62,237 bases of DNA from Candidatus Kryptoniota bacterium (GTDB lineage Bacteria > Bacteroidota > Ignavibacteria > Kryptoniales > JAKASW01), in NCBI GenBank assembly GCA_046706365.1, contig JBJKPN010000188.1:1-62237 (forward strand), read 5' to 3'. This document shows positions 1 to 19,999 of this stretch, piece after piece. The notes under the pieces were generated by a model. The model searched no databases. It was not told the origin of the DNA and saw nothing but the letters and a program-made list of their open reading frames with translations. Position 1 is the stretch's first letter; the number at the start of each line of letters is the position of its first letter. Made by a program: the position numbers and the translations under genes.

Positions 1-23
1 AAGCAGGACGAAAATAAGCCGAA

Positions 24-503
24 CTATTCATTTTGGACAAGCCTCTTTGATTTGAGTTCTCTGAAGAGTGAGATCCAGACCGGAACCACGAAAAATGCGA
101 GTGAGATGCCGAAAGCGCCTCCGGTTATTGACCGTGATAGAAAAGTATTGTGTCCGATTCCGGCATAATTCTCGGCGAAATCGACGACCATGGCCGCAAG
201 CGGAATTGCGGCAAAAAGGATATTGGGTATTTCCGCCTCCCGTAGCGACTTGAAAAGAGGGTAGACGATTATGCCAAGAGTAGCTCCGTAATAGATCGAT
301 GCGCATCTCGAACAGACGGCGAGCTTGTAACCGAAAATATGAAAACTTCTGGAATCCAACTGGTCGCATACTGGCCGGAAGAACCTGTAGAGTATATCTG
401 CGTTAATTCCAAAATGGAGTAGGATTGGCGGGAATGTAAACATCAAATCATAGACAAGGGCGAGCAAAACCAGGAAAATGTAGCTCTTGGTCTCAACTCT
501 CAA
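24..503 (-). CDS. DUF2085-family membrane protein
   Basis: Hydrophobic segments plus VCDQLDSRSF...VCSRCASIYYG motif; TTG at 503 overlaps the argB stop (TTGA), preferred over the ORF-track start at 599. Confidence 0.75.
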   Translation of the reverse strand: MRVETKSYIFLVLLALVYDLMFTFPPILLHFGINADILYRFFRPVCDQLDSRSFHIFGYKLAVCSRCASIYYGATLGIIVYPLFKSLREAEIPNILFAAIPLAAMVVDFAENYAGIGHNTFLSRSITGGAFGISLAFFVVPVWISLFRELKSKRLVQNE

Positions 504-1267
504 GCGATCACCTGTGTTCCTGCACTCTGTCCTGAGATCACCTTCATTGCGCCGTCTGCGTCTGTCACGAGAGCCGTGCGGACTCCGCTCTTCACGCATC
601 GAATCGCCGCCTCAATTTTTGGCACCATCCCTCCGGTCACGATACCGGTCCTTTTCATCTCCAAGAAGTCCTTCTCGTTCAATTGCGAAACCACCGCACC
701 GTTGTCGATGACACCCGGCACGTTCGATAAGAATATAGTCAATTCAGACGTAAGAGACGATGCGACTGCCGCAGCGGCATAATCCGCATTGACATTCAGT
801 GACATTTTGGAATCGGTGCTAACGCTTATCGGTGAAAGGACAACAGCGAAGCGACCCAGGAGTTCTTCGAGCATGTTCGTGTCCACTGCCACGACCTCGC
901 CGACGAGTCCGACATCTTCGCCCTCCCTCAGCATTCGGTTGGCAACAAGAAGTTTACCGTCGACTCCGCTCAGGCCGATCGCATTAACACCCTTCTGCTG
1001 GAGAGATCTAACGAGCCGTTTATTGATGAGGCCTGAAAGACTCATCTCAACTACATCGATCGTGGCGGCATCCGTATAGCGCATTCCTTTGACGAAATTC
1101 GTTTCAACGCCGAGTGTCGCCAGGAGACGAGTGATTTCCTTACCTCCTCCATGGACCAATACAACCTGATGACTTTCTCTCCTGAGTGTAGCGACGATTG
1201 AGGAGACATTTTCCAGGAAGCCGGCGTCATCGATCTCGTTGCCGCCGATTTTCAAGACGATTCTCAA
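500..1267 (-). CDS. argB: Acetylglutamate kinase
   Basis: VLKIGG, VHGGGKEI, GMRYTD, NVNADYAA, GGMVPKI motifs; adjacent to argC. Confidence 0.93.
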   Translation of the reverse strand: MRIVLKIGGNEIDDAGFLENVSSIVATLRRESHQVVLVHGGGKEITRLLATLGVETNFVKGMRYTDAATIDVVEMSLSGLINKRLVRSLQQKGVNAIGLSGVDGKLLVANRMLREGEDVGLVGEVVAVDTNMLEELLGRFAVVLSPISVSTDSKMSLNVNADYAAAAVASSLTSELTIFLSNVPGVIDNGAVVSQLNEKDFLEMKRTGIVTGGMVPKIEAAIRCVKSGVRTALVTDADGAMKVISGQSAGTQVIA

Positions 1268-2301
1268 ATGAGTCCCTCCGTCTCGGTTATGCCGAACATG
1301 ACGTTGAAGTTCTGTACTGCCTGGCCCGCTGCTCCCTTACCCAGATTGTCGATCGAAGAGACGACAATGGCAAAGGGAGAATTTTCGACTCTCTTGACTG
1401 AAATAACACACATGTTCGTGTTGATAGTATGATGGAAAGAGGCGATTTGATTTTCAGCCAACACCTTGACGAAAGTCTCATTCAGGTAGGTCTCACTGTA
1501 TTCTCTGGTCAGTTCTTCGGTGGACATCTCACGGTTCAGCTTCACATAAATAGTGTTCAGCATTCCTCTTGTAATCGGGACGAGGTGTGGTGAAAAGATA
1601 ATCTTGAGGTCGGATTTCGAGACCTTCTTCAGCTCCTGTTCGATTTCTCCGGTATGGCGGTGAACATATCCGATGTTGTACGGGTAAAGGTTTTCGTTTA
1701 ATTCGGCAAACAGGAGCCTCACCTCCGCCTTTCTGCCCGCGCCGGTGACTCCCGATTTGGCATCGATTATGACCGGCGACGTCAGGTCGGCAAGCCTCTC
1801 CTTCAGGAGCGGATAAACGCCAAGAATCGTTGCGGTAGGATAGCAACCCGGATTTGCAACGAATTGCGCCGTTTCGATCGGAACGCGGTTGATCTCGGTC
1901 AGACCGTAAACGAAATCATCCAGGAAGTCAGGACTCGTGTGCCTGGTACCGTACCATTTTTCATACTCATCGGCGTCGTCAAACCTGTAGTCGGCGCTCA
2001 AGTCGATGATCTTCACGCCGGTTGCGGCTTTGCGTATCTCCTCGACCACGCTTCGTGCTGCTCCGTGCGGCAGGGAAAGGAAGACGGCATCGACGTCCTT
2101 CAGGTCGACGTCGGAGTTTTTCACTATTCCGAAATCGTCGGTGGTCGGATAGATATCGCTAAGTTTTTTCCCGGCCGCAGACTCTGCCGTTATATATTTT
2201 ATTTCCGCTGTATTGTGCCTCCTGAGAATTCGGTAGAGCTCATAACCGGCATAACCTGAGACACCGAATATCGCAACTCGTATTTTATTTTCCGTCGCCA
2301 A
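1264..2301 (-). CDS. argC: N-acetyl-gamma-glutamyl-phosphate reductase
   Basis: [48 protein letters not shown]; TTG start at 2301 chosen for AAGGAG spacing (2307 is the alternative). Confidence 0.95.
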
Positions 2302-3517
2302 GCTCAAACTCCTTATGCAGAACTTCCACCGCCTTTTTCATATCGCCCTCGCTGACCACAACAGACACCTTGATCTCGCTCGTAGATATCATCTGTATGT
2401 TGACGTTTGCATCGGCCAGCGCCTTGAACATCCTTGCCGCCACTCCGGAATGTGTTCTCATTCCGACACCGACCACCGAGACTTTGGCAATCTTCTCGTC
2501 GCCCGTGACGTAAGTGGCTTTCTTCTGCCTGACCAATTCCTGAAGAATCTCCGTAGCCCGCCTGTAGTCGCCCTTGGGGACGGTGAAACTCATATCGGTA
2601 TATCCCTGTGAACTTGCACTCTGGATTATCATGTCTACTATAATCTCTGCTTCCGCAAGCGGTGCGAAAATGCTGTGTGCAATCCCCGGTTTGTCTGAAA
2701 CGTGGAGGACAGTGATTTTCGCTTCATTCTTATCCTGAGAAATTCCCGTCACCACGACACTTTCCATGTCGTTCGTTTCATTTACGACCATCGTTCCCTC
2801 GCTGTCATTGAAACTGCTTCTTACGTGGATAGGTATGTCGAACTTCATTCCGAAGAGCACGGACCGCGTCTGTAGTACCTTTGCTCCGCTGCTGGCCAGC
2901 TCGAACATCTCCTCGAAACTAATTCTCCTGAGCTTTCTGGCGTGCGGTACGAGATTGGGGTCGGCCGTGTATACGCCGTCTACGTCTGTGTAAATCTCGC
3001 AGACCAGCCCGCTTTTCACATACGGCTTCAATGCCGCGGCGATGGCCACCGCCGTCGTATCGGATCCACCCCGACCGAGCGTTGTAATATCTCCTTGTTC
3101 GTCGATCCCCTGGAACCCTGCAACAATCGCAATGGAGCCATCCTTCAAAACGCTCCTCAGTTTCTGTGCATCGATCCTTTTAATGTGCGCCCTCGTGAAG
3201 CTTGAGTCCGTCAGGAGTCTCACCTGGTGATTTTGAAGTGAGCGTGCTTTGTACCCCATGGAGATCAAAGCCATCGCGAGCAGTGCCGTCGACACCTGTT
3301 CACCTGTCGATACTAGAACGTCGAGCTCTCGCGGATCCGGATCGCTGACCGAAGACTTTGCCAGGTCGATCAACCGGTTCGTTTCGCCTGCCATCGCGCT
3401 TACTACGACGACAACGTCGTGTCCTCTGGCTTTCGCATCGGCGACGCGACGGGCGACTTTGCTGATCCTTTCGATGGTCCCCATCGATGTTCCGCCGAAT
3501 TTCTGTACTAATAACAT
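2285..3517 (-). CDS. lysC: Aspartate kinase with two C-terminal ACT domains
   Basis: [33 protein letters not shown]-terminal ISTSEIKVS. Confidence 0.93.
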
Positions 3518-3534
3518 CTGGTTTCCGAAGTCAA

Positions 3535-4590
3535 CTATTTAAGATTCATTAGATTCATCACTTCTGAGAGAGATGCAGGTGCGCTAAGCGGTGGCCTGAT
3601 TCCCTGCGACGCCGTGTCGGGATCTTTCAGGCCGTTTCCGGTTAGTGTGCAGACAATGACGTCCTTTTCGGTGAAGTATTTCTCCTTCAGAAGCTTCCTG
3701 AGACCCGCAACGGATGAGGCAGAGGCAGGCTCGCAGAAGATTCCCTCTGTTCCGGCAATCATACGCTGTGCTTCAAGTATTTCCGTATCCGCGACAGTGT
3801 TGATCTGCCCTTTCGACTCATCGAGCGCCTGGACGGCCTGTCTCCAACTCGCCGGATTGCCTATCCTGATTGCCGTGGCAACAGTCTCCGGATGTTCAAC
3901 CACTCTGCCGTGAACAATCGGTGCCGATCCCTCTGCCTGAAAGCCGAGCATCTTCGGTAGCGATGTGTGCCTGGCAGACGCCCACTCTTTATATCCTTTC
4001 CAGTAGGCGGTGATGTTTCCGGCGTTTCCCACAGGCAGCGAATGGTGAGTAGGCGAGGCGCCAAGAGTCTCTATTATTTCAAACGAGGCCGTCTTCTGTC
4101 CCTCGATCCTGAATGGGTTGATCGAGTTTACGATTACGACATTAGTCTTCTCGCCGATTTCACGAACGATTCTCAACGCGTCATCGAAATTGCCGTCAAT
4201 CTCTATCACCTTGGCGCCGTAAATCAGTGCCTGCGCCAGCTTACCGATGGCGATCTTACCCTTCGGCAGAATCACAAACGCCTGCAGGCCGGCCTTCGCG
4301 GCATACGCGGCGGCGGACGCCGACGTGTTTCCGGTCGAAGCGCAGATAACCGCCTTCGCTCCTTTCCTGACAGCCTCGGTAATTGCAACGGTCATGCCTC
4401 GGTCCTTGAATGAACCTGTCGGATTAGCGCCTTCAAATTTCAGGAAGAGCTTGCATGGAGCCTTGAGTTCTTTCCTCAAATTGTCGGCTTCGATCAACGG
4501 CGTGTTGCCTTCAAGAAGGGTAACCGGTTGGATGTCTTCCATGAATGGCAGATATTCCGGATATTTCTTTATTACGCCTGAATAGGACAT
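3535..4590 (-). CDS. thrC: Threonine synthase
   Basis: [13 protein letters not shown] lysine motif, [34 protein letters not shown]. Confidence 0.95.
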
Positions 4591-4611
4591 TTGGTTAGTT
4601 TCAAAATAAGT

Positions 4612-5640
4612 TTAGAATTTCAGTAAAATCTTCCCGAACTGTTGCCTGTCTTCGATTAACCTGTGGGCTTCCTGCACTTCGGTGAAGGGGAGGATCCTAT
4701 CGATAACGGCGGAAAATTTCTTCCTGCTGAGCAAATCGAGAAGTATCATGAGGCGGCTCTTGCTGGCCATCGTACTTCCGTAGATCGTTAACTGTTTTGC
4801 GAAAAGCTGCCTGAGGTCGGTCACGGCCTCATAGCCTGTCGTCGAGCCGCAAGTCACGATTCTCCCGCCGTATTTTGCGGAGAGGATGCTTTCCCGCCAC
4901 GTGGCCTGGCCGGTATGTTCAAAAACTATATCGACGCCTCGTCTGTCCGTCAGCTTCCTGACGCTCTGGGAAATTCCCTCCAGATTATAGTTGATGACGT
5001 CATCGGCTCCGATTGCCCTTGCCTTAGCGAGCTTCTCTTCCGAGCCGGCGACCGCTATGACGCGAGCACCGAATAATTTAGCTATCTGGATGGCCGCGGT
5101 CCCGACACCGCTTCCCGCACCAAGGACGAGGATATCTTCCATCGGCCGAACCGTCGCTTTGTCCACGAGCATCTGGTAGGCGGTCATGAAAACGAGTGCA
5201 GAGGCCGCCGCGTGTTCGAACGGTACGTTACCGGGAAGCTTGAAGACTTCCTCTCTTTTCACGGCTACGTACTCCGAATCAACTCCGTCGCAATGCTCTC
5301 CGCGGATCTTGTACTGCCGGCATAAGTTGTCCCTGCCGTTCAGACATTGCTCGCATGTCCCGCATGATGTTGCGGGAGATATGAGAACGTTGTCGCCGGC
5401 CTGCAGATCGGTGACTTCATCGCCGACAGCGGTAATTGTACCGGCACCGTCGGAACCCAGAATCATCGGTAGGTGAAATGTGACACTCGGAAGACCAGTT
5501 CGCACCCAGATATCGAGGTGATTGACTGAGGCAACCTTCACCTTCACTACTACTTCCCTTGCTCTGGGAGTAGGGGAGGGGAGATTATCGACTACGAGCT
5601 TTTCAATGCCCCCGTGCTCGTGGACACGAATGGCTTTCAC
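4612..5640 (-). CDS. Zinc-binding alcohol dehydrogenase / MDR-family oxidoreductase
   Basis: CGTCEQC...C structural zinc motif, GAGSGVG NAD(P) loop, GKILL C-terminus. Confidence 0.88.
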   Translation of the reverse strand: MKAIRVHEHGGIEKLVVDNLPSPTPRAREVVVKVKVASVNHLDIWVRTGLPSVTFHLPMILGSDGAGTITAVGDEVTDLQAGDNVLISPATSCGTCEQCLNGRDNLCRQYKIRGEHCDGVDSEYVAVKREEVFKLPGNVPFEHAAASALVFMTAYQMLVDKATVRPMEDILVLGAGSGVGTAAIQIAKLFGARVIAVAGSEEKLAKARAIGADDVINYNLEGISQSVRKLTDRRGVDIVFEHTGQATWRESILSAKYGGRIVTCGSTTGYEAVTDLRQLFAKQLTIYGSTMASKSRLMILLDLLSRKKFSAVIDRILPFTEVQEAHRLIEDRQQFGKILLKF

Positions 5641-5641
5641 T

Positions 5642-6400
5642 TCAACCGACCAACACCGAGCCGCCGTTTACATTGAGAATCTCGCCTGTGACGTGGCGGG
5701 CGAGATCGGATGCAAGGAAGAGAATCGGTCCGGCGATATCCTCCCCGACCGGTATTTTTCCAAGCGGAATCGAGCGGCGAACCTCTTCTTTGTAGTCTTT
5801 GTCGCTGAACACGTTTTCGCACATTTCAGTGTCGACCCAGCCGGGGGCTACACAATTGACCCTTATGTTAAATCGGCCTAGTTCCGTTGACAGGCTCTTC
5901 GTAAGCGAAATCACGCCACCTTTGCTCGCAGCGTAATGGGAGTGGCCTGCTTCGCCGCGCTGCCCCGCCGTAGACGAAATGTTTATGATGCTGCCGCCGC
6001 CTTGTTGTTTCATTATGGGGACAACATAATGGCAGAAGAGGAATGTTCCTTTCAAATTGAGGCCAATTGTGTCATCCCAGACATCTTCGCTCATAGAATC
6101 AATTTCACCAAAGGTCCACATCCCTGCATTATTAACGAGAATATCTATGTGCCCGAATTCTTTTTGAGTTTCCCCGACAATTCTCTTTGCGACTTCACTC
6201 TTGCTGTTGTCGCCCTTGAAGGCTTTTGCCTTCTTTCCGAGTTGTCGAATCCGGCCCACGACCTCATTCGCCCTCGATTCATTGCCCCGATATGTGATCG
6301 CTACATCCGCGCCCGCCTTCGCCAACAAAATTGCCGTGGCAGCACCTATGCCTCTCGATCCACCGGTTATCAGGGCAACCTGACCGGCTAAGCTTATCAT
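5642..6400 (-). CDS. SDR-family oxidoreductase (FabG-like)
   Basis: TGGSRGIG, NNAG, YAASK, VAPGWVDT; start set at ATG 6400 (MISLAGQ). Confidence 0.9.
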   Translation of the reverse strand: MISLAGQVALITGGSRGIGAATAILLAKAGADVAITYRGNESRANEVVGRIRQLGKKAKAFKGDNSKSEVAKRIVGETQKEFGHIDILVNNAGMWTFGEIDSMSEDVWDDTIGLNLKGTFLFCHYVVPIMKQQGGGSIINISSTAGQRGEAGHSHYAASKGGVISLTKSLSTELGRFNIRVNCVAPGWVDTEMCENVFSDKDYKEEVRRSIPLGKIPVGEDIAGPILFLASDLARHVTGEILNVNGGSVLVG

Positions 6401-6433
6401 CAATCTTCCTGAATTTGTCTGGACTACTAGTAG

Positions 6434-6462
6434 AAAATAAAGAAGCACGGCTATTGTTTCAA
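6434..6462 (-). promoter_or_regulatory. sigma70-like promoter for the SDR-thrC-lysC-arg operon
   Basis: TTGAAA-N17-TATTTT on the minus strand. Confidence 0.55.
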
Positions 6463-6568
6463 TAAATGCACGATTTTTATTCCAACTGCCGAATGATTCG
6501 TGCTGCATCGCAGCCACAAAGCGTCCGGTTCACGGCATCTTTATACCCGGGAGGTTCGGCAAATTACG

Positions 6569-6597
6569 TTGTATATCTGTCTCGACGGCCTTAAATT
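6569..6597 (+). promoter_or_regulatory. sigma70-like promoter upstream of the recombinase-like gene and leuS operon
   Basis: TTGTAT(6569-6574)-N17-TAAATT(6592-6597); ATG follows at 6607. Confidence 0.5.
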
Positions 6598-6606
6598 CAT
6601 TGAAAA

Positions 6607-7506
6607 ATGATTGAGACCAAGTTTCCCACTACCACGATTCCGCAAAGTCAGCTGGTGATCCTCGTCAAGCAGTTCGAAGAAGGGATGCAGTTTGCCCGGG
6701 GAACTACCAAGCACGTTTATGCCAGGGCACTTGACCAGTTGCTTCTTTATGCCAGGTCGAATGTATTCGGCTTCACGCCGGACGATTTTGTGCAGTTCAG
6801 AGTCTGGCTGTTCAATCAAAGACACCTTTCCACGAACACGGTGAATACTTACCTCACTGCTTCCAGGCGATTCTGCGAATTCCTTGTGGAGACGGGAGTA
6901 CTTCAGAAGAATCCCACTTGGAGCGTACACGGCACGGCACAGGAATTCAAGATACTCGGAATCGGGCTGACAGAAGTGACGAAAGCGGTTTCGCGAATCA
7001 ACCGGACGAGCGTTTTGGGAAAACGCGATTATGCATTTCTTGTGACAATTCTCGAGTGCGGCGCGGCAATTCACGAGCTGATAAACGCCGATGTCGGGGA
7101 TCTGAAAAAGAATGGGAACAAGGTAGAACTCCGGGTGAAGTCTAATGGCGTGAAGGAAAAGCAGGAGACGCTGACAGTGAGCCATACGGCAGCAGCAGCG
7201 CTTTACGACTACATCGGTGCGCGTGGGGTGGTTGCGGCCACCGCCCCTCTTTTCGGGACAGCCCGTGCCGGCAGGGCGCAGAATGCGAGGCTTTCCTTCC
7301 GAGGTGCGCGAGCTGCGATGCGCAAACGTTTGAAAGTGGATGAAAGACGGACTCTGCGACTCGATTCTCTCAGAACTTACTGCGCTGTGAGACTCATGAA
7401 ACAGGGCAAGACTTCCGATGAGATCCGTTTATTCATGCGATTCAAAAGCGGCATGCCATTCAGAAGAATAATGACAAATTCAAAAGCGATAATAGAATCA
7501 AGATGA
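6607..7506 (+). CDS. Tyrosine recombinase/integrase-fold protein, predicted catalytically inactive
   Basis: N-terminal core-binding pattern (TVNTYLTASRRFCEFL...KNP), KRDYA box I, PLF, SLR box II; catalytic R, K, H, H/W and Y positions substituted; ATGA overlap with leuS. Confidence 0.85.
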   Translation: MIETKFPTTTIPQSQLVILVKQFEEGMQFARGTTKHVYARALDQLLLYARSNVFGFTPDDFVQFRVWLFNQRHLSTNTVNTYLTASRRFCEFLVETGVLQKNPTWSVHGTAQEFKILGIGLTEVTKAVSRINRTSVLGKRDYAFLVTILECGAAIHELINADVGDLKKNGNKVELRVKSNGVKEKQETLTVSHTAAAALYDYIGARGVVAATAPLFGTARAGRAQNARLSFRGARAAMRKRLKVDERRTLRLDSLRTYCAVRLMKQGKTSDEIRLFMRFKSGMPFRRIMTNSKAIIESR

Positions 7507-9968
7507 AATACGATTTTACAGCGATCGAAGAGAGATGGCAGAAGTTCTGGGAAGAGAACAAGGTTTACAGTGCAAAGCTGTCCGATCCGGACAAGAAACT
7601 ATACTGCCTGGTCATGTTTCTATATCCGAGCGGCGACAGACTTCACATCGGCCACTGGTATAATTTTGCCCCAACCGACACCTGGGCCAGGTTCAATCGA
7701 CTGAAAGGCTACAACGTTTTCGAGCCTATGGGCTATGATGCTTTTGGCCTTCCGGCGGAGAACTATGCAATCAAAACAGGAGTCCATCCTCAGGACAGCA
7801 CGCAGAAGAACATACGAGACATAAGGACGCAGCTCAAGAAAATGGGCGCGATGTACGATTTCGACTACGAGGTAGACACATCCAATCCTGAATACTATAA
7901 ATGGACCCAATGGATATTCCTCGAGCTTTATAAGAAGGGCCTCGCATACCGTACAAACGCACCCGTAAATTGGTGTCCGAAGGATCAGACGGTCCTGGCA
8001 AACGAGCAGGTTGTGGATGGACTCTGCGAGCGTTGCAGCACTCCCGTAGTCCGGAAAGACATGACCCAGTGGTTCTTCAAGATAACCGATTATGCAGACA
8101 GGCTTCTGGAAGGACTCGACAGGATCGACTGGCCCGAGCGAACGAAGCTTATGCAGCGCAACTGGATAGGCAGAAGTGAGGGCGTCGAAATCGTTTTCAA
8201 GATCGAAGACAAAAACGATACTATCCGCGTCTTCACGACGAGACCCGATACTCTGTTTGGAGCTACTTACGTTGTCCTCGCCCCTGAGCATCCGCTTGTC
8301 CGGGATGTCACAAAGCCTGAATTCAAATCCAAGGTTGATGAATACGTCGATTTTGTTGCACACGAAAACGAAATCGAAAGGACTTCGACATCAAAAGAGA
8401 AGACCGGTGTTCCCACAGGGGCATTCGCGATCAACCCTATCAACGGAGAGAAAATTCCGATTTGGATTGCCGATTACGTTCTCTCTACCTACGGGACAGG
8501 CGCGGTGATGGCAGTGCCTGCTCATGACGGGCGTGATTTTGAATTTGCCAGGAAATATCAGCTGCCGATAAGGACGGTTGTACAGCCGATGGACGGTAAG
8601 CTGCCCGAGACGCTGGAGGCCGCGTATGTCGATGAAGGCGTCGCTGTTAACAGCGGCCACTTCGACGGGCTTGAGACCCCGAAAGTATGGGATGGCATAG
8701 CCGATGAACTTCAGAAGAACGGCAGCGCAACTCGCAAAGTGAACTACCGTATCCGTGATTGGCTCCTTTCCCGGCAGCGCTACTGGGGCGCTCCGATTCC
8801 GATTATTCATTGCGGCAAATGCGGGGAAGTTCCTGTACCCGATAAGGACCTACCGGTAGTTCTCCCTTACGACGTGGAATTCAAACCCACAGGAGAATCT
8901 CCGCTTGCGAGGAACGAAAAGTTCGTCAATGTAGCTTGCCCCAGGTGCGGAGGACCCGCAAAACGCGATGTCGATACAATGGACACCTTTGTAGATTCAT
9001 CCTGGTACTTCCTGCGATACCTGACGCCGCACCTTGATTCCGCTGCGTTCGACGACGGGCTTGTGTCTCATTGGCTGCCGGTCGATAAGTATGTCGGCGG
9101 TGCCGAGCATGCCGTGATGCATTTGCTTTATGCGCGGTTTGTGATCAAAGCGCTCCATGATGCCGGCCGGCTGAAATTCGACGAGCCCTTCACAAGTCTT
9201 GTTCACCAGGGCATTATTACAAATCAGGGCGCGAAGATGTCCAAGTCCCGCGGCAACGTCGTGAACCCGGACCAGTTCGTCAACTCCTACGGCGCCGACA
9301 CCTTCAGGATGTTTCTGATGTTTATGGGACCGTACAATGAGGGAGGGGACTGGAGCGACAGGGGAATCACGGGAATATTCAGATTTCTCAACAAGGTTTA
9401 CGACCTGTTCGAGTCGAGCAAGGGGATACCGCAAGCGGCTCATACGAAATTCAGGATGGACGACTTACGTGAAGACGAACGCAGCGTTTATCGCAAGGTC
9501 AATCAACTCATCAAAAAGGTAACGGAGGATCTCGAGCAATTCAGGTTCAACACGGCGATCGCCGGGTTGATGGAATTCCTGAATGATTACACTCAAGCCA
9601 TCTCTCAAAACACAGTCGGTAGTCCGTTGCAGGGATATGTGCTTCATCAGTTCATTGTCCTTTTGGCGCCGTTCTCCCCTCATCTTGCGGAAGAGTTGAA
9701 CGAGATGCGCGGGGGGAAGACCTCAGTCTTCGCTTCGCTGAAGTGGCCGGAATACGATCCCGAGGCCATAACGGAAGCGAACGTGACGCTCGTCGTCCAG
9801 GTCAACGGAAAAGTCAGAGCCAAGTTGGTCGTTCCCGTAGATTCGAGCGACGACGCCGTGAAGGCCTTGGCGACAGCGGAAGCAAATGTCCAGAGGCATC
9901 TCGAGGGAAAGACAATCCTGAAAACAGTAGTCGTTCAAAACAGGCTGCTCAACTTCGTAGTCAGATAA
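7503..9968 (+). CDS. leuS: Leucine--tRNA ligase
   Basis: HIGH (LHIGH) and KMSKS motifs, FTTRPDT editing domain, DTMDTFVDSSWY. Confidence 0.98.
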   Translation: MKYDFTAIEERWQKFWEENKVYSAKLSDPDKKLYCLVMFLYPSGDRLHIGHWYNFAPTDTWARFNRLKGYNVFEPMGYDAFGLPAENYAIKTGVHPQDSTQKNIRDIRTQLKKMGAMYDFDYEVDTSNPEYYKWTQWIFLELYKKGLAYRTNAPVNWCPKDQTVLANEQVVDGLCERCSTPVVRKDMTQWFFKITDYADRLLEGLDRIDWPERTKLMQRNWIGRSEGVEIVFKIEDKNDTIRVFTTRPDTLFGATYVVLAPEHPLVRDVTKPEFKSKVDEYVDFVAHENEIERTSTSKEKTGVPTGAFAINPINGEKIPIWIADYVLSTYGTGAVMAVPAHDGRDFEFARKYQLPIRTVVQPMDGKLPETLEAAYVDEGVAVNSGHFDGLETPKVWDGIADELQKNGSATRKVNYRIRDWLLSRQRYWGAPIPIIHCGKCGEVPVPDKDLPVVLPYDVEFKPTGESPLARNEKFVNVACPRCGGPAKRDVDTMDTFVDSSWYFLRYLTPHLDSAAFDDGLVSHWLPVDKYVGGAEHAVMHLLYARFVIKALHDAGRLKFDEPFTSLVHQGIITNQGAKMSKSRGNVVNPDQFVNSYGADTFRMFLMFMGPYNEGGDWSDRGITGIFRFLNKVYDLFESSKGIPQAAHTKFRMDDLREDERSVYRKVNQLIKKVTEDLEQFRFNTAIAGLMEFLNDYTQAISQNTVGSPLQGYVLHQFIVLLAPFSPHLAEELNEMRGGKTSVFASLKWPEYDPEAITEANVTLVVQVNGKVRAKLVVPVDSSDDAVKALATAEANVQRHLEGKTILKTVVVQNRLLNFVVR

Positions 9969-10717
9969 TGCAGCGAATATCTGCGGTCGTCATAGCTGGA
10001 AGCGAGGAGAAGAACATTGCCGGCTGTCTGGAAAGCCTGCGATGGACCGACGAAATCATCGTGGTAAATTCCGAGAGCAAAGACAGGACCGTTGACATTG
10101 CGCACGAATTCACCGACAAGGTCTTCATACGGAAATGGCAGGGTTACGCGTCTCAGAAGAAGTTCGCCGTTGAAAAAGCATCCAACGAGTGGGTTCTCAG
10201 CCTGGATGCCGACGAGAGAGTCTCTGAAGAGCTGCGTGATGAAATCGCCGGGCTCGACTTTGCGCGGGCCGACGGCTTCTATATTCCGCGCAGAAATTAT
10301 TTCCTCGATAAAGTGATACGAAGCTGCGGATGGTCTCCCGACTATCAAATGAGGCTATTCGACAAGTCCAGGTCGCATATGAACGAGCGAATTGTTCATG
10401 AAGGTTTCGTAGTAGACGGACGGACTGGACATCTCAAGGGAGAGATAATCCATTACACTCACATGACTATCAGCGATGCCATGAGGAAATCTAATGAATT
10501 TTCCGCACTGAGCGCGGTGGAGAAATCCGGACGCAGGAAGGTAAGAGGGCGGCATATTTTCTTTTTCCCGGCTTACGCTTTCTTTCATCACTACATTATG
10601 CGGAGGGGATTCACCGACGGAGTGCACGGATTGATGGTGTCGCTAGTACACGCAGTCACGAACTTGCAGACGCAGCTCAGGATTTGGGAAATGCAGAATG
10701 TCAGGGAAAAGAAATAA
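9968..10717 (+). CDS. Glycosyltransferase family 2 (WaaE/KdtX-like)
   Basis: EWVLSLDADERV motif, VHE, IHYT; TAATG overlap with the leuS stop. Confidence 0.88.
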   Translation: MQRISAVVIAGSEEKNIAGCLESLRWTDEIIVVNSESKDRTVDIAHEFTDKVFIRKWQGYASQKKFAVEKASNEWVLSLDADERVSEELRDEIAGLDFARADGFYIPRRNYFLDKVIRSCGWSPDYQMRLFDKSRSHMNERIVHEGFVVDGRTGHLKGEIIHYTHMTISDAMRKSNEFSALSAVEKSGRRKVRGRHIFFFPAYAFFHHYIMRRGFTDGVHGLMVSLVHAVTNLQTQLRIWEMQNVREKK

Positions 10718-12578
10718 AGCGCTGAGGACTTACGGCAGGATCCTCAGCTACCTCAAGCCGTACAAGAAATATCTGGCCGCTTCCATCTCCTCGGCCGTTT
10801 TTTATTCGCTCTTCGCGGGGGCGTCCGTCTATCTGACAATCCCGCTTCTGGACACTCTCTTCAACCAGGGATCTCCTCACGCCTTGTCTGTACCCACAAC
10901 CGCCTCATTTCTCGACAAGATAAAAGCCGATGTTTCGAACTGGTTCAACCATCTCATGTTTTCAGGAACCAAGTCAGATGCGTTGCTCAGAATCTGCCTG
11001 ATAATTATCGCTTCCTTCTTCTTGAAAAATCTTTTCGGATATGCAAGAGCGTATTTCCTCGCGTACAGCGAACAGGGAGTCATGAGAGATATTCGAAACC
11101 AGCTCTACCGTAAGCTGCAGGAACTGTCGCTCGGTTATTTTACCAACGAGAGGACTGGCACACTGATATCCAGGGTTACCAACGATGTGAACGTTGTCAA
11201 CACCGGTATCACGGCGACCTTTGACACCATGATAAGAGAGCCGCTCACGATCATTGTCTTTTTGGGAATTGCCGTCTCGCTCAGCTGGAAACTCACCCTG
11301 ATTTCCTTTGTTGTCTTTCCGTTCGTGCTGTATATAATAAGCCGGATCGGGATGCGGCTTTATAAGGAAAGCGGCGTGTCGCAGGAACAAATGGCACATA
11401 TAACTTCCGTGCTTCAGGAGACGATAACCGGGATGAAGGTCGTGCGGGCTTTCGGCATGGAGGATTTCGAGACGAAGAAGTTCGGGAGACACACTGAGAG
11501 TTATTTCAAATCACTCCTCAGGATAATGCGGATCCGTAACCTCGCAGGACCGATAACGGAGTTCTTCTCGGTGCTGGCGGGAGCGGCGATTATTTATTAC
11601 GGCGGAATGCAGGTGATTCAGTCCGGTTCGCTGAGCCCAAGTGAATTCATGGGATTTCTCTTCGCCATATTCCAGCTCATGCCTCCGGTTAAGGAGCTCA
11701 CAACAGTCTCCAATAGAATGCAGGAGTCGGCCGCGGCGGGAAAAAGAATATTCGACGTGCTTGATGAAGCCGGGAAGCTCCCCGAGCCGCCGGATGCCGC
11801 CGACGTTACGGAATTCTCCGAGGAGATCGAGTTTGCGGGAGTGTGGTTCAAATATCCGGTGCCGACCATCGGAAGAACTCACGCAATTTCGGAGGACTTT
11901 GTTCTGAAGGATATCAATGTGAAGATTTTCAAAGGCGAAGTCCTCGCGGTAGTCGGCCCGTCAGGCGGGGGAAAGTCGACGCTCATCGATCTTATCCCCC
12001 GATTCTACGACCCGACAAAGGGAAGAATATCCATTGACGGCCGCGACCTGAGAGACGTCACCGTTACCACTCTTCGCTCAAAGATCGGCATCGTTTCCCA
12101 GGAAACCATTCTTTTCAACGATTCCGTAAGGAACAATATTGCTTACGGTCTGGAAACCTGCCCGATTGAAAAAGTCATCGAGGCCGCAAAAGCTGCGAAC
12201 GCTCACAGCTTCATTTCGCAACTGCCGAATGGCTATGACACCATAATAGGTGAAAGAGGAACGAAACTCTCAGGGGGACAGCGGCAACGAATTTCAATCG
12301 CAAGGGCCCTCCTCAAGAATCCCCCCATAATGATTTTCGATGAGGCTACTTCGGCTCTCGACTCAGAATCCGAAATGCTGGTCCAGGAAGCGATTGAGAG
12401 ATTGATGGAAAACCGGACTTCGATTGTCATTGCTCACAGACTGTCTACTATAAAAAACGCAAACAGGATAATTGTCATAGACGGCGGAGAAATAGTTCAG
12501 AAGGGAAAACACCAGGAACTTTTGAGGCAGAAAGGCGGAATCTATAAGAAGCTTTACGAGATGCAATTCAGTGACTGA
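10698..12578 (+). CDS. MsbA-like ABC exporter (permease + ATPase)
   Basis: Transmembrane N-half, Walker A GPSGGGKS, LSGGQRQR, DEATSALD. Confidence 0.92.
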   Translation: MSGKRNKALRTYGRILSYLKPYKKYLAASISSAVFYSLFAGASVYLTIPLLDTLFNQGSPHALSVPTTASFLDKIKADVSNWFNHLMFSGTKSDALLRICLIIIASFFLKNLFGYARAYFLAYSEQGVMRDIRNQLYRKLQELSLGYFTNERTGTLISRVTNDVNVVNTGITATFDTMIREPLTIIVFLGIAVSLSWKLTLISFVVFPFVLYIISRIGMRLYKESGVSQEQMAHITSVLQETITGMKVVRAFGMEDFETKKFGRHTESYFKSLLRIMRIRNLAGPITEFFSVLAGAAIIYYGGMQVIQSGSLSPSEFMGFLFAIFQLMPPVKELTTVSNRMQESAAAGKRIFDVLDEAGKLPEPPDAADVTEFSEEIEFAGVWFKYPVPTIGRTHAISEDFVLKDINVKIFKGEVLAVVGPSGGGKSTLIDLIPRFYDPTKGRISIDGRDLRDVTVTTLRSKIGIVSQETILFNDSVRNNIAYGLETCPIEKVIEAAKAANAHSFISQLPNGYDTIIGERGTKLSGGQRQRISIARALLKNPPIMIFDEATSALDSESEMLVQEAIERLMENRTSIVIAHRLSTIKNANRIIVIDGGEIVQKGKHQELLRQKGGIYKKLYEMQFSD

Positions 12579-12647
12579 AAGACCGCTCGGGCAGGGCGCG
12601 CACTTTACGGTCTATGCTCATATGAATAAAACGCGGCAGGTCCCACC

Positions 12648-14030
12648 ATGGCAGAACTAATTCGCGGATTAAAAGTCCGGGATATTGTCCTCTTCAACGT
12701 GGTGGCCATCGTCGGCATAAGGTGGATTTCACTTGCGGCAGCAACCGGTCCGAGTTCCATTTCTCTGTGGATTCTCGCACTCGTTCTCTTCTTCATTCCG
12801 CAGGCCGTTGCCGTGATCTACCTGAGCAAAAAGTATCCTATCGAAGGCGGAGTATACGAGTGGGCCAAAGTCGAGTTCGGTGATTTCCACGGGTTTGTGG
12901 CCGGCTGGTGTTACTGGGCAAACAACCTTGTCTATTATCCTTCTCTCCTGATTTCAGTTGCTGCAATCGCATCCTTCACCATCCCCGGCGGATCCGGTCT
13001 TGCGAGCAACAAGCTGTTCATAGCCTCGGTCAGTCTTGTTATTCTGTGGACTGCTATCGGATTCAACGTCGTCGGCGTAAAGATAGGGAAGTGGGTACAG
13101 AACGTCGGCGCAATCGGCACCTTCGGTCCCATTCTTGTGATTGCCGTACTCGCAGGGATTATTATATACGCTGGAAAATCACAGACCCATTTCTCAATTA
13201 CCAACATTCTTCCAACGAAACTGGATTACGGCACGCTCTCCTTCTGGTCATCCATGTGTTTTGCACTTGCAGGACTGGAACTCGCCTCGGTTATGTCCGG
13301 AGAGATAGTCGATGCGGCCAAGACGATCAGAAAGGCGACGTATATTTCGGGCGTGGCTATCGTGTTCGTGTACCTCGTAGGGACGATAGCGTTGCTGGTG
13401 GGAATTTCCGCGAAGAATGTAAACCTTGTCACGGGATTGGTGCAATCGATCCATGTACTTGAAGTCGAAACGGGATTCAGATACCTGACAAACATCAGCG
13501 CTCTTCTCATAACCATTGCGGGAGTCGGCGGGGCCGGCGCATGGCTGGCAGGAAGCGCGAGAATTCTGTTTGTCACCGGCATAGATAACTACCTTCCCTC
13601 GGCTTTCGGCAAAATTCACCCGAAATGGAAAACACCTCATGTTGCGATAATTTTCCAGGGAATAATTGCCACGGCATTCCTTCTCATGAGTTTCATAGGC
13701 GCCAGCGCCGAACAGGCCTATCTAGTTCTCGTCGACGCCACTATCATCGTGTATTTCATTCCGTACATATACATATTCCTGGCGGCCATAAAGATATTCC
13801 GTCGTGAAGCCCGGGAAACGCATACACGTGGGACATTGTTTAGAATCATAGCAAGTGCCGTCGGAGGATTGACGACGGCCGGAGCCATCCTGTTGACGTT
13901 GTTTCCTCCGGAAGCCGGGGGAAATCCCTTACTCTTCCTCGCCAAGACTCTTGGGAGCTCTTTTGCGTTCGTGGCAGTCGGGATAACAATATTTTGGATG
14001 GCCAAAAGAAGAAAGATTGCATTGCCTTGA
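12648..14030 (+). CDS. APC-family amino acid permease
   Basis: About 12 hydrophobic helices, YPIEGGVYEW, FALAGLE, KIHPKWKTP. Confidence 0.88.
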   Translation: MAELIRGLKVRDIVLFNVVAIVGIRWISLAAATGPSSISLWILALVLFFIPQAVAVIYLSKKYPIEGGVYEWAKVEFGDFHGFVAGWCYWANNLVYYPSLLISVAAIASFTIPGGSGLASNKLFIASVSLVILWTAIGFNVVGVKIGKWVQNVGAIGTFGPILVIAVLAGIIIYAGKSQTHFSITNILPTKLDYGTLSFWSSMCFALAGLELASVMSGEIVDAAKTIRKATYISGVAIVFVYLVGTIALLVGISAKNVNLVTGLVQSIHVLEVETGFRYLTNISALLITIAGVGGAGAWLAGSARILFVTGIDNYLPSAFGKIHPKWKTPHVAIIFQGIIATAFLLMSFIGASAEQAYLVLVDATIIVYFIPYIYIFLAAIKIFRREARETHTRGTLFRIIASAVGGLTTAGAILLTLFPPEAGGNPLLFLAKTLGSSFAFVAVGITIFWMAKRRKIALP

Positions 14031-14076
14031 GCATTTTTCGAAATCTCATTCCTTCGCAGTCAATAGCAGGTAGAGG

Positions 14077-15927
14077 ATGAAGTTGATGGAATTAAGTAAC
14101 AACCTGGGAACAAGTAAAAGTCAATATCTGCGGGAAGCCTGGAGCCAACCCGTCCATTGGCAATCGTATTCCGACGACGTATTCCGTATCGCCGTTGAAC
14201 TGGATCGCCCGATCCTTCTCGACATCGGAGCTGTCTGGTGTCACTGGTGCCATGTCATGGATGATGAGTCATATTCTGATAGTGAAGTCGCCGGATTGAT
14301 TAACGACAATTTTGTGCCTGTTAAAGTCGATAGGGACCAGATGCCCGACGTCGACTCGCGGTACCAGGCTGCGGTTGGCGCAATGACGGGAGCCGGAGGG
14401 TGGCCGCTGACAGTTTTCCTGACGCCAGACGGCAAGCCCTTTTACGGCGGGACTTATTTCCCGAAGAAGGATCTGCAGGGAAGACCGGGTCTGATTACGA
14501 TGCTGCCCCGGATCGCCGACACATATCGGGAACAAAAAGAGGAAGTGCGGAAGAGTGCTGACCACCTTCTCCAGCAGCTGACAGATTACGAAAGAGATCA
14601 CTCGCAGCGCAGTCCGTTGGGACCCGAAATAGTAAAGACAATTATAGAAGATGCCAGGTCGAAAATGGACCGGCAATTCGGAGGATTCGGCAGAGCACCG
14701 AAATTTTTCAACGCCACCGCACTAATGCTCTTGCTCGAAACCACTCCGAAAGCGGCAGATGCCGACACCGAAGATTTCATAAAAATAACGTTGAAGAACA
14801 TTGCCTGCGGCGGCGTTTACGATCACATCGGCGGAGGCTTCCATAGATATTCGGTGGATCGCTACTGGCACGTTCCGCATTTCGAGAAAATGCTGTACGA
14901 CAATGCAATGATGATGAGAGTTTACCTGAAAGCCTTCGGTGTGTACGGCGATTCCCAGTATCTGAAATCAGCGAGGGAAACAGCGGATTGGATTGTTGGT
15001 CCAATGAGATCGCCGGACGGTCCCTTCTATGCTCATCAGGATGCGGATATCGGACCTAATGATGACGGGACCTACTGGACATGGACAAATGAGGAAATAA
15101 AGGATGCACTCACGAGCGACGAAATAAGTGCTTTTGTCCCGCGCTATGATATTCGACAGGAGCCGAGCGATATCTACGAAACGCCGGGAAGAAATGTTCT
15201 CAGGATTGCTTTGCCTGTCGATGAAATCGCTATTGTGACGAAATCGACCGCGGAAGAGACTGAGAAACTATTGTCCTCTGCCAGGAACAAGCTCCTCAAT
15301 ATCCGAAATGGGAAGAAGTTGCCCTACATCGACAAGACAATTTTCGCCGATAGAAACGGATTGGCAATAAGCGCCCTGGTGGAGGCTTCGCTCGAACTGA
15401 ACGAACGAGAATATTACCGTGCGGCCGAGAATGCTGCCGACTTCATACTCGAGAAGATGACGGACGGGAACGGAAGGGTTGTACATGCATTTCTGGATTC
15501 CTCTGCCGTCTACCAGGGCCTGTTGGACGACCAGGTATTCTTCGGTACCTCGCTGCTGGACTTATTCGAAGTCATGAGGAACGACAGGCACCTCGCGGGT
15601 GCCGAGAAGATTGCGTCCGGATTGCTTCGCTATTTTGAAGACGGGGAAAACGGCGGATTCTTCGATCGCGCTTCAGACAGTATGGGTGAAGGCTTTCTTT
15701 CTTCGAAGAGAAAACCTATCGATGATACTCCCACGCCCGCCGGGAATCCGGCGGCAGCGATATTCTTCGACAGGTTGTACTCGATTACTGAAAACAGGGA
15801 TTACTCGGAAGTCTCTCGTCGGACACTGGAATCATTTGCCGGATCTGCGGGGAATATCGGGATTTACGCCGCAACGTACGGACAGGCACTCAACCTGCAT
15901 CTCGCGCTGCGCAAAAAACTTAGATAA
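14077..15927 (+). CDS. YyaL/SSP411-like thioredoxin-domain protein (DUF255)
   Basis: WCHWCHVM, GGWPLTVFLTP, GGFGRAPKF, PHFEKMLYDNA. Confidence 0.9.
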   Translation: MKLMELSNNLGTSKSQYLREAWSQPVHWQSYSDDVFRIAVELDRPILLDIGAVWCHWCHVMDDESYSDSEVAGLINDNFVPVKVDRDQMPDVDSRYQAAVGAMTGAGGWPLTVFLTPDGKPFYGGTYFPKKDLQGRPGLITMLPRIADTYREQKEEVRKSADHLLQQLTDYERDHSQRSPLGPEIVKTIIEDARSKMDRQFGGFGRAPKFFNATALMLLLETTPKAADADTEDFIKITLKNIACGGVYDHIGGGFHRYSVDRYWHVPHFEKMLYDNAMMMRVYLKAFGVYGDSQYLKSARETADWIVGPMRSPDGPFYAHQDADIGPNDDGTYWTWTNEEIKDALTSDEISAFVPRYDIRQEPSDIYETPGRNVLRIALPVDEIAIVTKSTAEETEKLLSSARNKLLNIRNGKKLPYIDKTIFADRNGLAISALVEASLELNEREYYRAAENAADFILEKMTDGNGRVVHAFLDSSAVYQGLLDDQVFFGTSLLDLFEVMRNDRHLAGAEKIASGLLRYFEDGENGGFFDRASDSMGEGFLSSKRKPIDDTPTPAGNPAAAIFFDRLYSITENRDYSEVSRRTLESFAGSAGNIGIYAATYGQALNLHLALRKKLR

Positions 15928-15945
15928 CCGGATTCCGGAGCCCGG

Positions 15946-16182
15946 CTACTTGCTTCCGCGAATCAGGGATGAGAGTGCCTTCCTGGCCTTCTGGGCGTCA
16001 ACTTCGTCAACGAAGAAATCGACATTGCCGACACCCGGAGAAGGGTAGAGAGATGCAAAATTTTCATTCTGCGTAAAGTAACCGATCTCTTCGTTCTCGA
16101 GCGCCATCTTGGCGCCTATGATATCCGACTGGATGTAAGAGCTGAAGACCTTCACAGACTTTCCGCTTTTCTTTTCGCTCAT
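15946..16182 (-). CDS. DUF2007-like small protein (putative signal transduction)
   Basis: 78 aa with AKMALENEEI...ENFASLYP...FVDEVDAQKARKAL pattern. Confidence 0.6.
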   Translation of the reverse strand: MSEKKSGKSVKVFSSYIQSDIIGAKMALENEEIGYFTQNENFASLYPSPGVGNVDFFVDEVDAQKARKALSSLIRGSK

Positions 16183-16184
16183 GA

Positions 16185-17345
16185 CTAAATTTTAGCAAGA
16201 GCCTTCTTAAAATCAAGCAGAAGGTCCTCGACGTCCTCAATTCCGACTGAAATTCTCACCATTCCCTCAGTCACGCGGGCAGCCTTTAACTCCTCCTGGC
16301 TCATTTTGATGTGGCTGGTCAACACGGGAATACTGACGAGCGTCTCCGTGCCGCCGAGGCTGGTCGCATTCAAGGCGACTTCCAGGCTGTCGCAAAACTT
16401 CTTAGCCGCCGAAAGATTCTCAAGCTCGATGCAAAGCATACCGCCGAATCCGCTCATCTGGCGCTTTGCAATCTTGTAACTTCTTGATGTCGGTAAGCCC
16501 GGATAAAGCACGCGGCTTACCTTTTTTTGCCTCATGAAGAACTCTGCAAGCCGCTGGGCGTTTATATTCTGCTGCTCGACTCTCACTTTCAAAGTCTTGA
16601 GGCTCCTATCGAGCATGTAAGCATCGATAGGGTTTATGCATCCGCCAAACGCCTTCATCGTTTCGCGAATATTTTTAATCAGCTGTTTCGAGGCAACCGC
16701 CGCACCAGCCATGATGTCGCTGTGGCCGCCGATGTACTTCGTCGCGCTGTGAATTACGACGTCGATTCCGAGGTCAATTGGGTTTTGATTGACAGGTGAA
16801 GCGAAGGTGTTATCCATCATCGTGATCGCACCGGCACGTGTGGCCGCCCTGACAACCTTCCTTATCGCGACACAGTCGGTGGTTGGATTGATCGGAGTTT
16901 CGAAGTAGACGAGCCTTGCCTCCGGAAACTTCTCATCGAGCGAGTACAGCTCGGCTTCGTCGACAAACCGAGTCTCAATTCCGAATCTCGGTGCGATATC
17001 GCGAAGGAACCTGTATGTCATCCCGTAAAGGCGGCGGAGGGCAACTATGGTATCGCCGTTTTTGGCAAAAGTCAGGATGCCCGTTGTTATGGCAGCCATG
17101 CCGCTCGAGAACAGGATCGCATCTTCCGCGTTCTCCAGAGAGGCGAGTTTCTCTTCGACGTTCCTGACCGTCGGGTTTGAATAGCGTGAGTATATGTAGA
17201 ACTCTTCCTCGTCCCCAATAAATTTCTCATAGTCATCGCTTTTGTCGACGGCGAATGTAGTACTTGCGAAGACAGGGAAGTTGGCTCCCCGGTACAGTTT
17301 ATCTTTTCTGCCGTGGACAGCAAGAGTGGATTTGTTGTTGGCCAA
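16185..17345 (-). CDS. Cys/Met metabolism PLP enzyme (cystathionine gamma-synthase/lyase or methionine gamma-lyase family)
   Basis: YSRYSNPT, FSSGMAAI, ETPINP, DNTFASP, HSATKYIGGHSD. Confidence 0.9.
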   Translation of the reverse strand: MANNKSTLAVHGRKDKLYRGANFPVFASTTFAVDKSDDYEKFIGDEEEFYIYSRYSNPTVRNVEEKLASLENAEDAILFSSGMAAITTGILTFAKNGDTIVALRRLYGMTYRFLRDIAPRFGIETRFVDEAELYSLDEKFPEARLVYFETPINPTTDCVAIRKVVRAATRAGAITMMDNTFASPVNQNPIDLGIDVVIHSATKYIGGHSDIMAGAAVASKQLIKNIRETMKAFGGCINPIDAYMLDRSLKTLKVRVEQQNINAQRLAEFFMRQKKVSRVLYPGLPTSRSYKIAKRQMSGFGGMLCIELENLSAAKKFCDSLEVALNATSLGGTETLVSIPVLTSHIKMSQEELKAARVTEGMVRISVGIEDVEDLLLDFKKALAKI

Positions 17346-17358
17346 GCTTTCCCTCCCT

Positions 17359-18081
17359 TCAGTGAGACGCTTCGTGGAGTATGCCGAGCATTTCTTTCAC
17401 GGCAGTCCCCAGCCCGACAAAAAGCGAGTGTGAGATCAGGGCATGACCGATGCTGAATTCCTCGATCTCTTCGATCATAGCCACCGGTCCGAGATTCCTG
17501 TAGTCAAGACCGTGGCCTGCGTTGACCCGGAGCCCGAGCTTATCGGCGTATCCTGCTGCCTTTCTCAGTCGTGACAGTTGTTTGGCGGCTTCGAGACCTT
17601 TCACATTTGCGTACTCCCCGGTATGGAGCTCCACATAGTCTGCGCCGACGCTCTTCGCCGCCTTTATCTGGGCCTCGACCGGGTCGACGAAGAGACTTAC
17701 CTCGATATTTTTGCCATGAAATCTGTTGGTTACTTCCTTTAGATGCGGCACCTGCGAAGCAACATCCAGGCCCCCCTCCGTGGTAAGCTCCTGTCTCTTC
17801 TCCGGGACAAGAGTGACCAGCTCGGGAACAACATCGAGCGCGATATTGATTATCTCTTCAGTCGCCGCCATCTCAAGGTCCAACCTGGTCTTCAGGAGTT
17901 TTCTGAGCAAATATACATCGGCGTCCTGAATATGCCGCCTGTCTTCCCGAAGATGGCTGACTATACCTGTAGCTCCCGCAAGTTCAGCGATGAGAGCCGC
18001 AGTTACGGGGTCGGGGTCGTTTCCCCCGCGCGCCCGGCGGAGCGTTGCTACGTGATCGATGTTTACGGAAAGTCTTTTCAC
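17359..18081 (-). CDS. pdxJ: Pyridoxine 5'-phosphate synthase
   Basis: [36 protein letters not shown]. Confidence 0.96.
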
Positions 18082-18848: not shown

Positions 18849-18906
18849 TCAATCTCGTACGGGTAATTAAATCAGACGGTTGAAAGGTAACAGCACTCGC
18901 AGCAAT

Positions 18907-19994: not shown

Positions 19995-19999
19995 GTCAA

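Follow-up and report, generated by a model that had tools for sequence, protein, structure and literature searches.

The gene directly upstream of leuS in a 62,237-nt stretch of a Candidatus Kryptoniota genome (contig JBJKPN010000188.1; the whole stretch is called the window here) encodes a protein that keeps the fold of the XerC/XerD-type tyrosine recombinases and has lost most of their catalytic centre. Its fold, the loss of catalytic residues, its orthology, the purifying selection acting on it, its synteny and a conserved cis element linked to the gene are established by the analyses below. We consider it an even bet that the protein is a domesticated, non-cutting and candidate site-specific DNA-binding protein that would autoregulate its own operon with leuS, by analogy with MrpR and SroF.

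Gene, fold and active site

The reading frame at 6607-7506 (+ strand) contains no stop codon (0 found) and specifies 299 aa, its TGA overlaps the leuS ATG (ATGA, 7503-7506), and neither an att-like repeat flanking the gene, nor tRNA genes (window 1-20000), nor phage genes were found nearby, all of which bears out an earlier sequence-only reading of the window. ATG 6607 is the only possible start because an in-frame TGA lies two codons upstream (6601-6603). In three genus members (L047-L049) the overlap with leuS is replaced by a spacer of about 40-60 nt, so that ATGA coupling is common in the genus and not universal. An antisense ORF of 214 aa (6541-7185, - strand) overlaps the gene and is probably spurious. 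Rfam (E-value mode) returned 0 matches in window 5500-10500. Coordinates of all features are given in Table 1.

Table 1. Features of the dead Xer-like gene and its surroundings, in window positions
Feature	Positions	Strand	Evidence or remark
Short inverted repeat TTACG-T-TGTAT containing -35-like TTGTAT (6569-6574)	6564..6574	+	TTG invariant 21/21, halves covary
Conserved block TTAAATTCATTGAAAA with -10-like TAAATT (6592-6597)	6591..6606	+	TTAAATTC invariant 21/21
Gene for 299-aa catalytically dead Xer-like protein	6607..7506	+	ORF list, profile and fold matches
N-terminal core-binding (SAM-like) domain, residues 13-106	6643..6924	+	PF13495 26.4 bits over residues 21-91
C-terminal catalytic-type domain without catalytic centre, residues 121-299	6967..7503	+	A154, K185, D253, R256, T257, R278, F279, M289
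Stop/start overlap ATGA with leuS	7503..7506	+	Also in 17/20 genus-level loci inspected
leuS (leucyl-tRNA synthetase, 821 aa), conserved downstream partner	7503..9968	+	

Structure prediction, one of the checks suggested in the sequence-only reading, found the fold kept: the model of the 299-aa protein, built on an 82-sequence alignment (pLDDT 86.1), contains the full two-domain tyrosine-recombinase fold (core-binding plus catalytic). VIA-align of residues 11-299 of the model matched XerA (Z 18.6), Cre (Z 17.4), XerH (Z 16.0) and many other recombinases; the best Foldseek matches were DNA-bound Cre (TM about 0.6, E 2e-9), and the profile of the dead Xer-like family matched XerA (5hxy) at E 2.9e-18. 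The core-binding domain has predicted helices at residues 13-26, 32-51, 58-70 and 76-95 and carries the family-invariant motif TYLTAxRRFC, with Y82, T84, R87, F89 and C90 invariant across 82 sequences. A genus-specific C-terminal helix (residues 282-297) is also predicted and is conserved within the genus. Against curated profiles the protein scored below the gathering threshold of PF00589 (Phage_integrase; 26.7 bits versus 27.1) and the threshold of PF13495 (26.4 bits versus 27), and far below the NCBIfam equivalog cut-offs for XerC (TIGR02224; 48.5 bits versus 335.15) and XerD (TIGR02225; 46.2 bits versus 329.6). The ESM Atlas yielded generic integrase clusters only, and the search for domain fusions yielded 8 longer relatives carrying integrase domains only. 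In the explanation that we favour, the C-shaped, two-domain DNA-clamping fold of XerC/XerD is kept and DNA cutting would be impossible.

Catalytic residues were called by MAFFT alignment to the XerD-like (L016) and XerC-like (L017) proteins of the same genome, and a profile-profile (hhalign) alignment was also made. Where these two proteins carry R-K-H-R-H-H-Y, the dead protein carries A154-K185-D253-R256-T257-F279-M289. Four of the six classical residues are gone, namely Arg-I (A154), His-I (D253), His-II (F279) and the Tyr nucleophile; Arg-II (R256) and the beta-hairpin Lys (K185) are retained, and the His that follows Arg-II is T257. The hhalign alignment ends at residue 283, and in residues 284-299, the last 16 of the protein, no likeness to the Tyr-bearing helix of the wider family can be detected. 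Among the 22 genus rows, Arg is found in 0/22 at the Arg-I column (A, T, S or K instead) and Tyr in 0/22 at the nucleophile column (M, L or I); the hairpin position is Lys in 17/22, Arg in 2/22 and Glu in 3/22, R256 is kept in 22/22, and the His-II column holds Phe in 21/22 and Tyr in 1/22. Five of the 22 orthologs have a Tyr one residue past the aligned nucleophile column (IMYN), at a variable position, and Y258 is nearly invariant within the genus.

The alignment agrees with the sequence-only reading on the replacement of Arg-I by A154, of His-I by D253 with R256 kept and of His-II by F279, as well as on the absence of any Tyr after residue 258, Y258 being the last in the protein. Its loss of the nucleophile also stands; the residue it named, I288, does not, since the MAFFT column holds M289. 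Its assignment of the Lys position to N180 was a misalignment, because both methods place the hairpin Lys at K185, and its count of five lost residues out of six has to be lowered to four. The basic character that it had singled out is no special feature of this protein (pI 10.4, versus 10.36 for the genome's canonical XerD-like protein).

Three proteins of the window genome exceed the PF00589 cut-off; among its Xer genes, a XerD-like protein (C70) reaches 354.7 bits, above the XerD equivalog cut-off of 329.6, and a XerC-like protein reaches 309 bits. Judged by these profile scores, the dead Xer-like protein is not the cell's canonical Xer, as canonical XerD- and XerC-like proteins coexist with it. 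No second member of the dead family was found in the window genome. In another genome of the genus (G023), an extra paralog (L029:3794-4756; 28% identical) carries the full R-K-H-R-H-H-Y set and lies away from leuS.

Orthologs in the genus and in other Bacteroidota

A word-indexed search returned 51 proteins at 53-100% identity, followed by a gap to four at 30-33%. Full-length, stop-free orthologs were found in 23 of 24 sampled same-genus genomes, the one without being 73% complete, and leuS lies directly downstream in 15/15 fetched loci and in 21/21 genus-level loci of named public genomes (titled Candidatus Kryptoniota or 'Bacteroidetes bacterium'). Nei-Gojobori dN/dS, taken from pairs whose dS was unsaturated or moderately saturated, was 0.03-0.18 for the dead gene and 0.04-0.07 for leuS in the same pairs. 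No integrative element was found at the locus in relatives. The comparisons which the sequence-only reading had put forward (orthologs upstream of leuS, a shared loss of catalytic residues, dN/dS) all favour exaptation over decay, the loss of Arg-I and of the aligned Tyr being shared and dN/dS being close to that of leuS. Of its proposal of exaptation rather than decay, the denial of decay is upheld by orthology, synteny and selection; the regulatory role that it listed among the outcomes is something we infer, favoured by the conserved cis element linked to the gene. On these sequence comparisons, the gene is a selected host gene and not a decaying integrase.

More distant relatives (about 30% identity) were found in Kryptonium-type, Ignavibacteria-type, Kapabacteria-type and Rhodothermales genomes. 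The family scan gave 186 hits, of which 80 were retained, and 49 of 301 sampled genomes of the phylum match the family profile at 146 bits or more, versus at most 109 bits for canonical Xer proteins. Arg-I is present in 0/59 non-genus rows and in 0/81 rows overall, with Ser at this column in nearly all non-genus rows. The commonest non-genus signature is S-K-Y/F-R-H-L/I-Y, and most family members retain the Tyr; Kryptonium-type rows additionally have Arg-II replaced by Lys, and Rhodothermales rows have it replaced by Thr, three of the latter also being without Tyr. Across 82 family sequences R278, beside the His-II position, is invariant and the R256 position is nearly so (at least 90%). In a search of 1.84 billion library representatives, 1494 matched at E ≤ 1e-30, and among the top 150 of these, 53 are without Arg-I (filling roughly the first 60 ranks) and 14 without Tyr. 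Several Arg-I-less representatives in the set P0056-P0205 are also without Tyr (signatures such as NKNTLED, SGHSHII and TGFKHIV), and these independent Tyr losses imply that complete active-site decay occurred more than once in the family.

An early loss of Arg-I by the whole family is the best explanation of these alignments. The family appears independent of catalysis, because 0/59 non-genus rows have Arg-I and the Kryptonium-type rows have also exchanged Arg-II for Lys. Maximum-likelihood analysis groups the genus sequences in a clade (g1; support 100/100) with short inner branches, whose stem measures 3.85 changes per site and matches the XerC/XerD branch in length. The genus protein is therefore the sole, fast-evolved ortholog that this genus has of an old Bacteroidota family; it changed rapidly at first and then came under constraint again.

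Of the 80 public loci, 54 carry leuS as the gene directly downstream of the family gene (21/21 of the genus and 33/59 non-genus loci, the latter all Kryptonium- or Ignavibacteria-type); in the other 26, one of which (L082) ends at a contig edge, leuS is not the next gene. Neighbours in other classes are varied housekeeping genes, with the family gene found beside CorA, beside an amidase, after the E2 of a 2-oxoacid dehydrogenase or after mnmA. In Ignavibacteria-type loci, GACGACATCACGATGATGGT recurs about 60-110 nt 5' of the family gene (up to 19 loci by 7-mer count); it may be the coding end of a conserved upstream gene, in which case the Ignavibacteria-type gene order would be one gene longer upstream. 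Public records name the family proteins 'tyrosine-type recombinase/integrase' or 'XerC', and no description of this Arg-I-less family was found in the literature searched, including the accessible portion of PMC8138268.

One structural record was considered as a family member and rejected: PDB 9i5v chain 14, a P. gingivalis 'RaiA' record, has all catalytic residues present. Residues 20-279 of this 401-aa chain can be aligned with the Xer-like profile, which suggests a Xer-like N-terminal part on the record of a ribosome-hibernation factor; only 34 residues of the chain are modelled in the paper (PMC12123416).

The promoter block and a cis element that travels with the gene

The promoter claimed in the sequence-only reading, TTGTAT and TAAATT separated by 17 nt just upstream of the gene, is present, and TAAATT ends 9 nt before the ATG. 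Within the 45 nt 5' of the ATG, the TTG, a fixed spacer and TTAAATTC are invariant in 21/21 genus-level sequences, and this block is conserved although synonymous sites are saturated. The pair agrees with the consensus at 8 of 12 positions, one short of the 9 required by our promoter scan, which did not list it. Because TAAATT lies only 9 nt from the ATG, the mRNA is probably leaderless or nearly so, with a predicted transcription start 1-4 nt upstream of the start codon. The half-sites of the inverted repeat at the -35 region covary (TTAC..GTAA versus ATCC..GGAT), with 12 cells changing on both sides, in 2 pairs; the covariation score was reached by 0/500 shuffles and slid controls scored far lower, in sequences that are related and record few events. 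The 16-mer block occurs as a single copy in the 3.99-Mb genome, and a regulon search of the window genome found no second copy of it, nor of the Ignavibacteria-type 11-mer in a like context. The lack of a second genomic copy of the genus block argues that there is no regulon.

By an unbiased count, the commonest 7-mer at -200 to +30 of the family gene is GTTATTG/CAATAAC. It is found in 33 of 57 non-genus loci, versus a background of 27 hits in 416,435 nt; the exact 7-mer is absent from the other 24, including all Kryptonium-type ones. The window's genus is likewise without the exact 7-mer and has a related block instead, TTAAATTC-ATTG, and the genus 16-mer TTAAATTCATTGAAAA resembles the Ignavibacteria-type block TTAAnTTCTGTTATTGC. 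We read the two blocks as homologous, on the basis of this resemblance. In Ignavibacteria-type loci the same place is occupied by TTGc.t-N-TAAnTTCTGTTATTGc (22 loci), the block itself also being written as TTCTGTTATTGCA or TTAAnTTCTGTTATTGCA; TTAAnTTCTGTTATTGC follows directly on a TTGCAT-type -35 in 22 loci (for example L058:3940-4000, L079, L059, L074 and L090) whose proteins are about 50-60% identical. In Rhodothermales, CCGTTATTGA stands upstream of the family gene, and in several Kapabacteria-type loci the reverse complement, TGCAATAACGG, is found at -33 to -128, so that the element occurs in both orientations across family loci. Three Kapabacteria-type loci (L076, L094 and L105) carry TGCAATAACGGTTACTTGCA at about -64 to -128, which resembles two abutting inverted half-sites of the core in an orientation opposite to that of the Ignavibacteria-type loci.

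The 11-mer has 1-2 copies per genome in 5 genomes, and the second copies in other genomes are within genes or chance-like. In 5/5 genomes whose family gene sits elsewhere, the element is absent upstream of leuS. A two-arm site or other clear operator architecture was sought by eye, and only one conserved arm of about 11 bp was evident. Three readings of the Ignavibacteria-type element were rejected by eye: a sigma-54 promoter and the Bacteroidetes -7 motif, each by comparison with its consensus sequence, and a TTG start codon, because the element stands in different frames and at different distances relative to the ATG and can point either way. Its independence of orientation, its restriction to the locus and its linkage to the gene are what a protein-binding site would show, and suit neither an RNA motif nor a general promoter box. 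The element also lies across the core promoter and the likely start site, and its conservation could instead reflect promoter function or the binding of another regulator. As a sequence feature, the gene-linked element favours a regulatory role without proving it.

Possible functions and relation to known systems

If the protein autoregulates its operon, as proposed at the outset, it would bind sequence-specifically to the conserved element overlapping its own promoter, and this binding would govern transcription both of the gene's near-leaderless mRNA and of leuS, which is coupled to it in translation, in an action comparable to that of MrpR and SroF, two integrase-fold repressors of phages. 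The family would have turned into a non-cutting, site-specific DNA binder long ago, and the window's genus would have gone furthest.

XerC, XerD and XerA are the best sequence and fold matches of the dead protein and share with it a common length, the two-domain layout, a chromosomal location and vertical inheritance; it differs from XerC and XerD in being without Arg-I, His-I, His-II and Tyr, in scoring about 285 bits under their equivalog cut-offs and in its very long branch. The fold search lists both MrpR and SroF (9rd5, Z 14.2; 8a0a, Z 12.9), and SroF of phage phi3T is reportedly an integrase-fold master repressor. In MrpR (YopR) of Bacillus phage SPbeta, a tyrosine-recombinase fold has the catalytic Arg and His replaced by Ser, Val or Asn and keeps Lys and Tyr; the protein is inactive in recombination and exerts repression through a repeated, conserved DNA element to which it binds (PMC10516654, excerpted text). 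The dead protein is MrpR-like in having a recombinase fold with catalytic Arg and His replaced, and its wider family keeps Lys and Tyr as MrpR does. Whereas MrpR and SroF are phage-borne lysogeny repressors, the dead protein is encoded by a host gene in a housekeeping operon, at a fixed place before leuS; it was derived from Xer independently of them (9-15% identity), the genus form is also without Tyr, and its DNA binding is only a candidate property.

A role that we hold to be clearly less probable than autoregulation, while giving it some weight, is that of a non-catalytic partner or modulator of XerC/XerD-dif, or of a chromosome-architecture protein, in which the fold and the C-terminal helix would join or block recombinase assemblies and the link to leuS would reflect gene order and nothing else. 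The coexistence of canonical XerD- and XerC-like genes fits such a role, as does the predicted, genus-conserved helix 282-297, and the varied housekeeping contexts in other classes argue against a family-wide, leuS-specific role. The family-linked cis element, however, adjoins the gene itself and is not a terminus-type site, and the last 16 residues are unlike the Tyr helix of the wider family. We think it improbable that the protein is instead a partner of LeuRS or of translation, binding protein or RNA and held in a fixed ratio to LeuRS by translational coupling. The gene pair is indeed conserved in Kryptonia- and Ignavibacteria-type genomes (54/80 loci, 21/21 in the genus) and the ATGA overlap is common to the window and 17/20 genus loci inspected; yet 26/80 loci have no leuS after the family gene, the conserved element tracks the family gene and not leuS, and the fold gives no hint of RNA binding.

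Very unlikely, in our estimate, is a protein that still acts as a recombinase or nicking enzyme through a rebuilt active site, for example with R278 and another nucleophile such as Y258. Such a site could draw on the invariance of R278 in 82 sequences, on R256 (at least 90%), on a mostly kept K185 and on a Y258 that is nearly invariant in the genus, and the wider family keeps Lys, Arg-II, His and Tyr. Against it, Arg-I, His-I, His-II and Tyr are all gone, with Asp at His-I; K185 is replaced by Glu in 3/22 and by Arg in 2/22 genus rows; no two-arm core site was seen; and MrpR, which keeps a comparable part of the set, does not recombine DNA (PMC10516654, excerpted text). Least credible of all, and close to negligible, is a decaying integrase remnant of a lost mobile element: the sub-threshold Pfam scores would suit it, but the frame is intact in 23/24 same-genus genomes with dN/dS of 0.03-0.18, the gene has a fixed chromosomal place without tRNA, att repeat or phage genes, and the fold is confidently predicted.

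Further systems resemble autoregulation by a non-cutting Xer-like protein in part. In streptococci and lactococci, the gene of the Xer-type recombinase XerS is genetically linked to its adjacent difSL site (PMC2731167, excerpted text). The family gene is similarly linked to its own DNA motif, with the difference that XerS is an active recombinase on a two-arm site, while the motif of the family gene shows a single evident conserved arm of about 11 bp and the dead protein has lost the nucleophile. Ndc10 of CBF3 (Z 7.5) and the ALOG domain (Z 5.4) are eukaryotic recombinase folds reused for DNA binding only; their structural likeness to the dead protein is distant, and lineage and context are unrelated. 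FliZ of Enterobacteria is said to be a chromosomal regulator with only a core-binding-like, integrase-type DNA-binding part, and the dead protein scores 13.8 bits against FliZ TIGR03823, below its cut-off of 159.3.

More tentatively, and with the odds against it, the reading may be extended to all Arg-I-less proteins of the family: these would be cellular, vertically inherited integrase-fold transcription factors, each with a site of about 11 bp, which in Kryptonia- and Ignavibacteria-type genomes would control the expression of an essential aminoacyl-tRNA synthetase. They would be the first host-genome counterpart of MrpR and SroF and would have lost Arg-I first, then Arg-II (Kryptonium-type) and then Tyr (the window's genus).

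Dead recombinase folds acting as DNA-binding regulators have been worked out for a few phage and eukaryotic proteins. To these the present case adds a host-encoded family, conserved in several classes, in which the order of active-site loss can be traced; a candidate cognate element in the DNA, which accompanies the gene; and a stable, translationally coupled link to leuS. The names 'integrase' and 'XerC' given to family proteins can mislead searches for mobile elements. T-box control is not known from Bacteroidota. If the binding is confirmed, the family would offer a simple system for the conversion of a recombinase into a transcription factor, and a new type of regulator for an aminoacyl-tRNA synthetase operon in this phylum.
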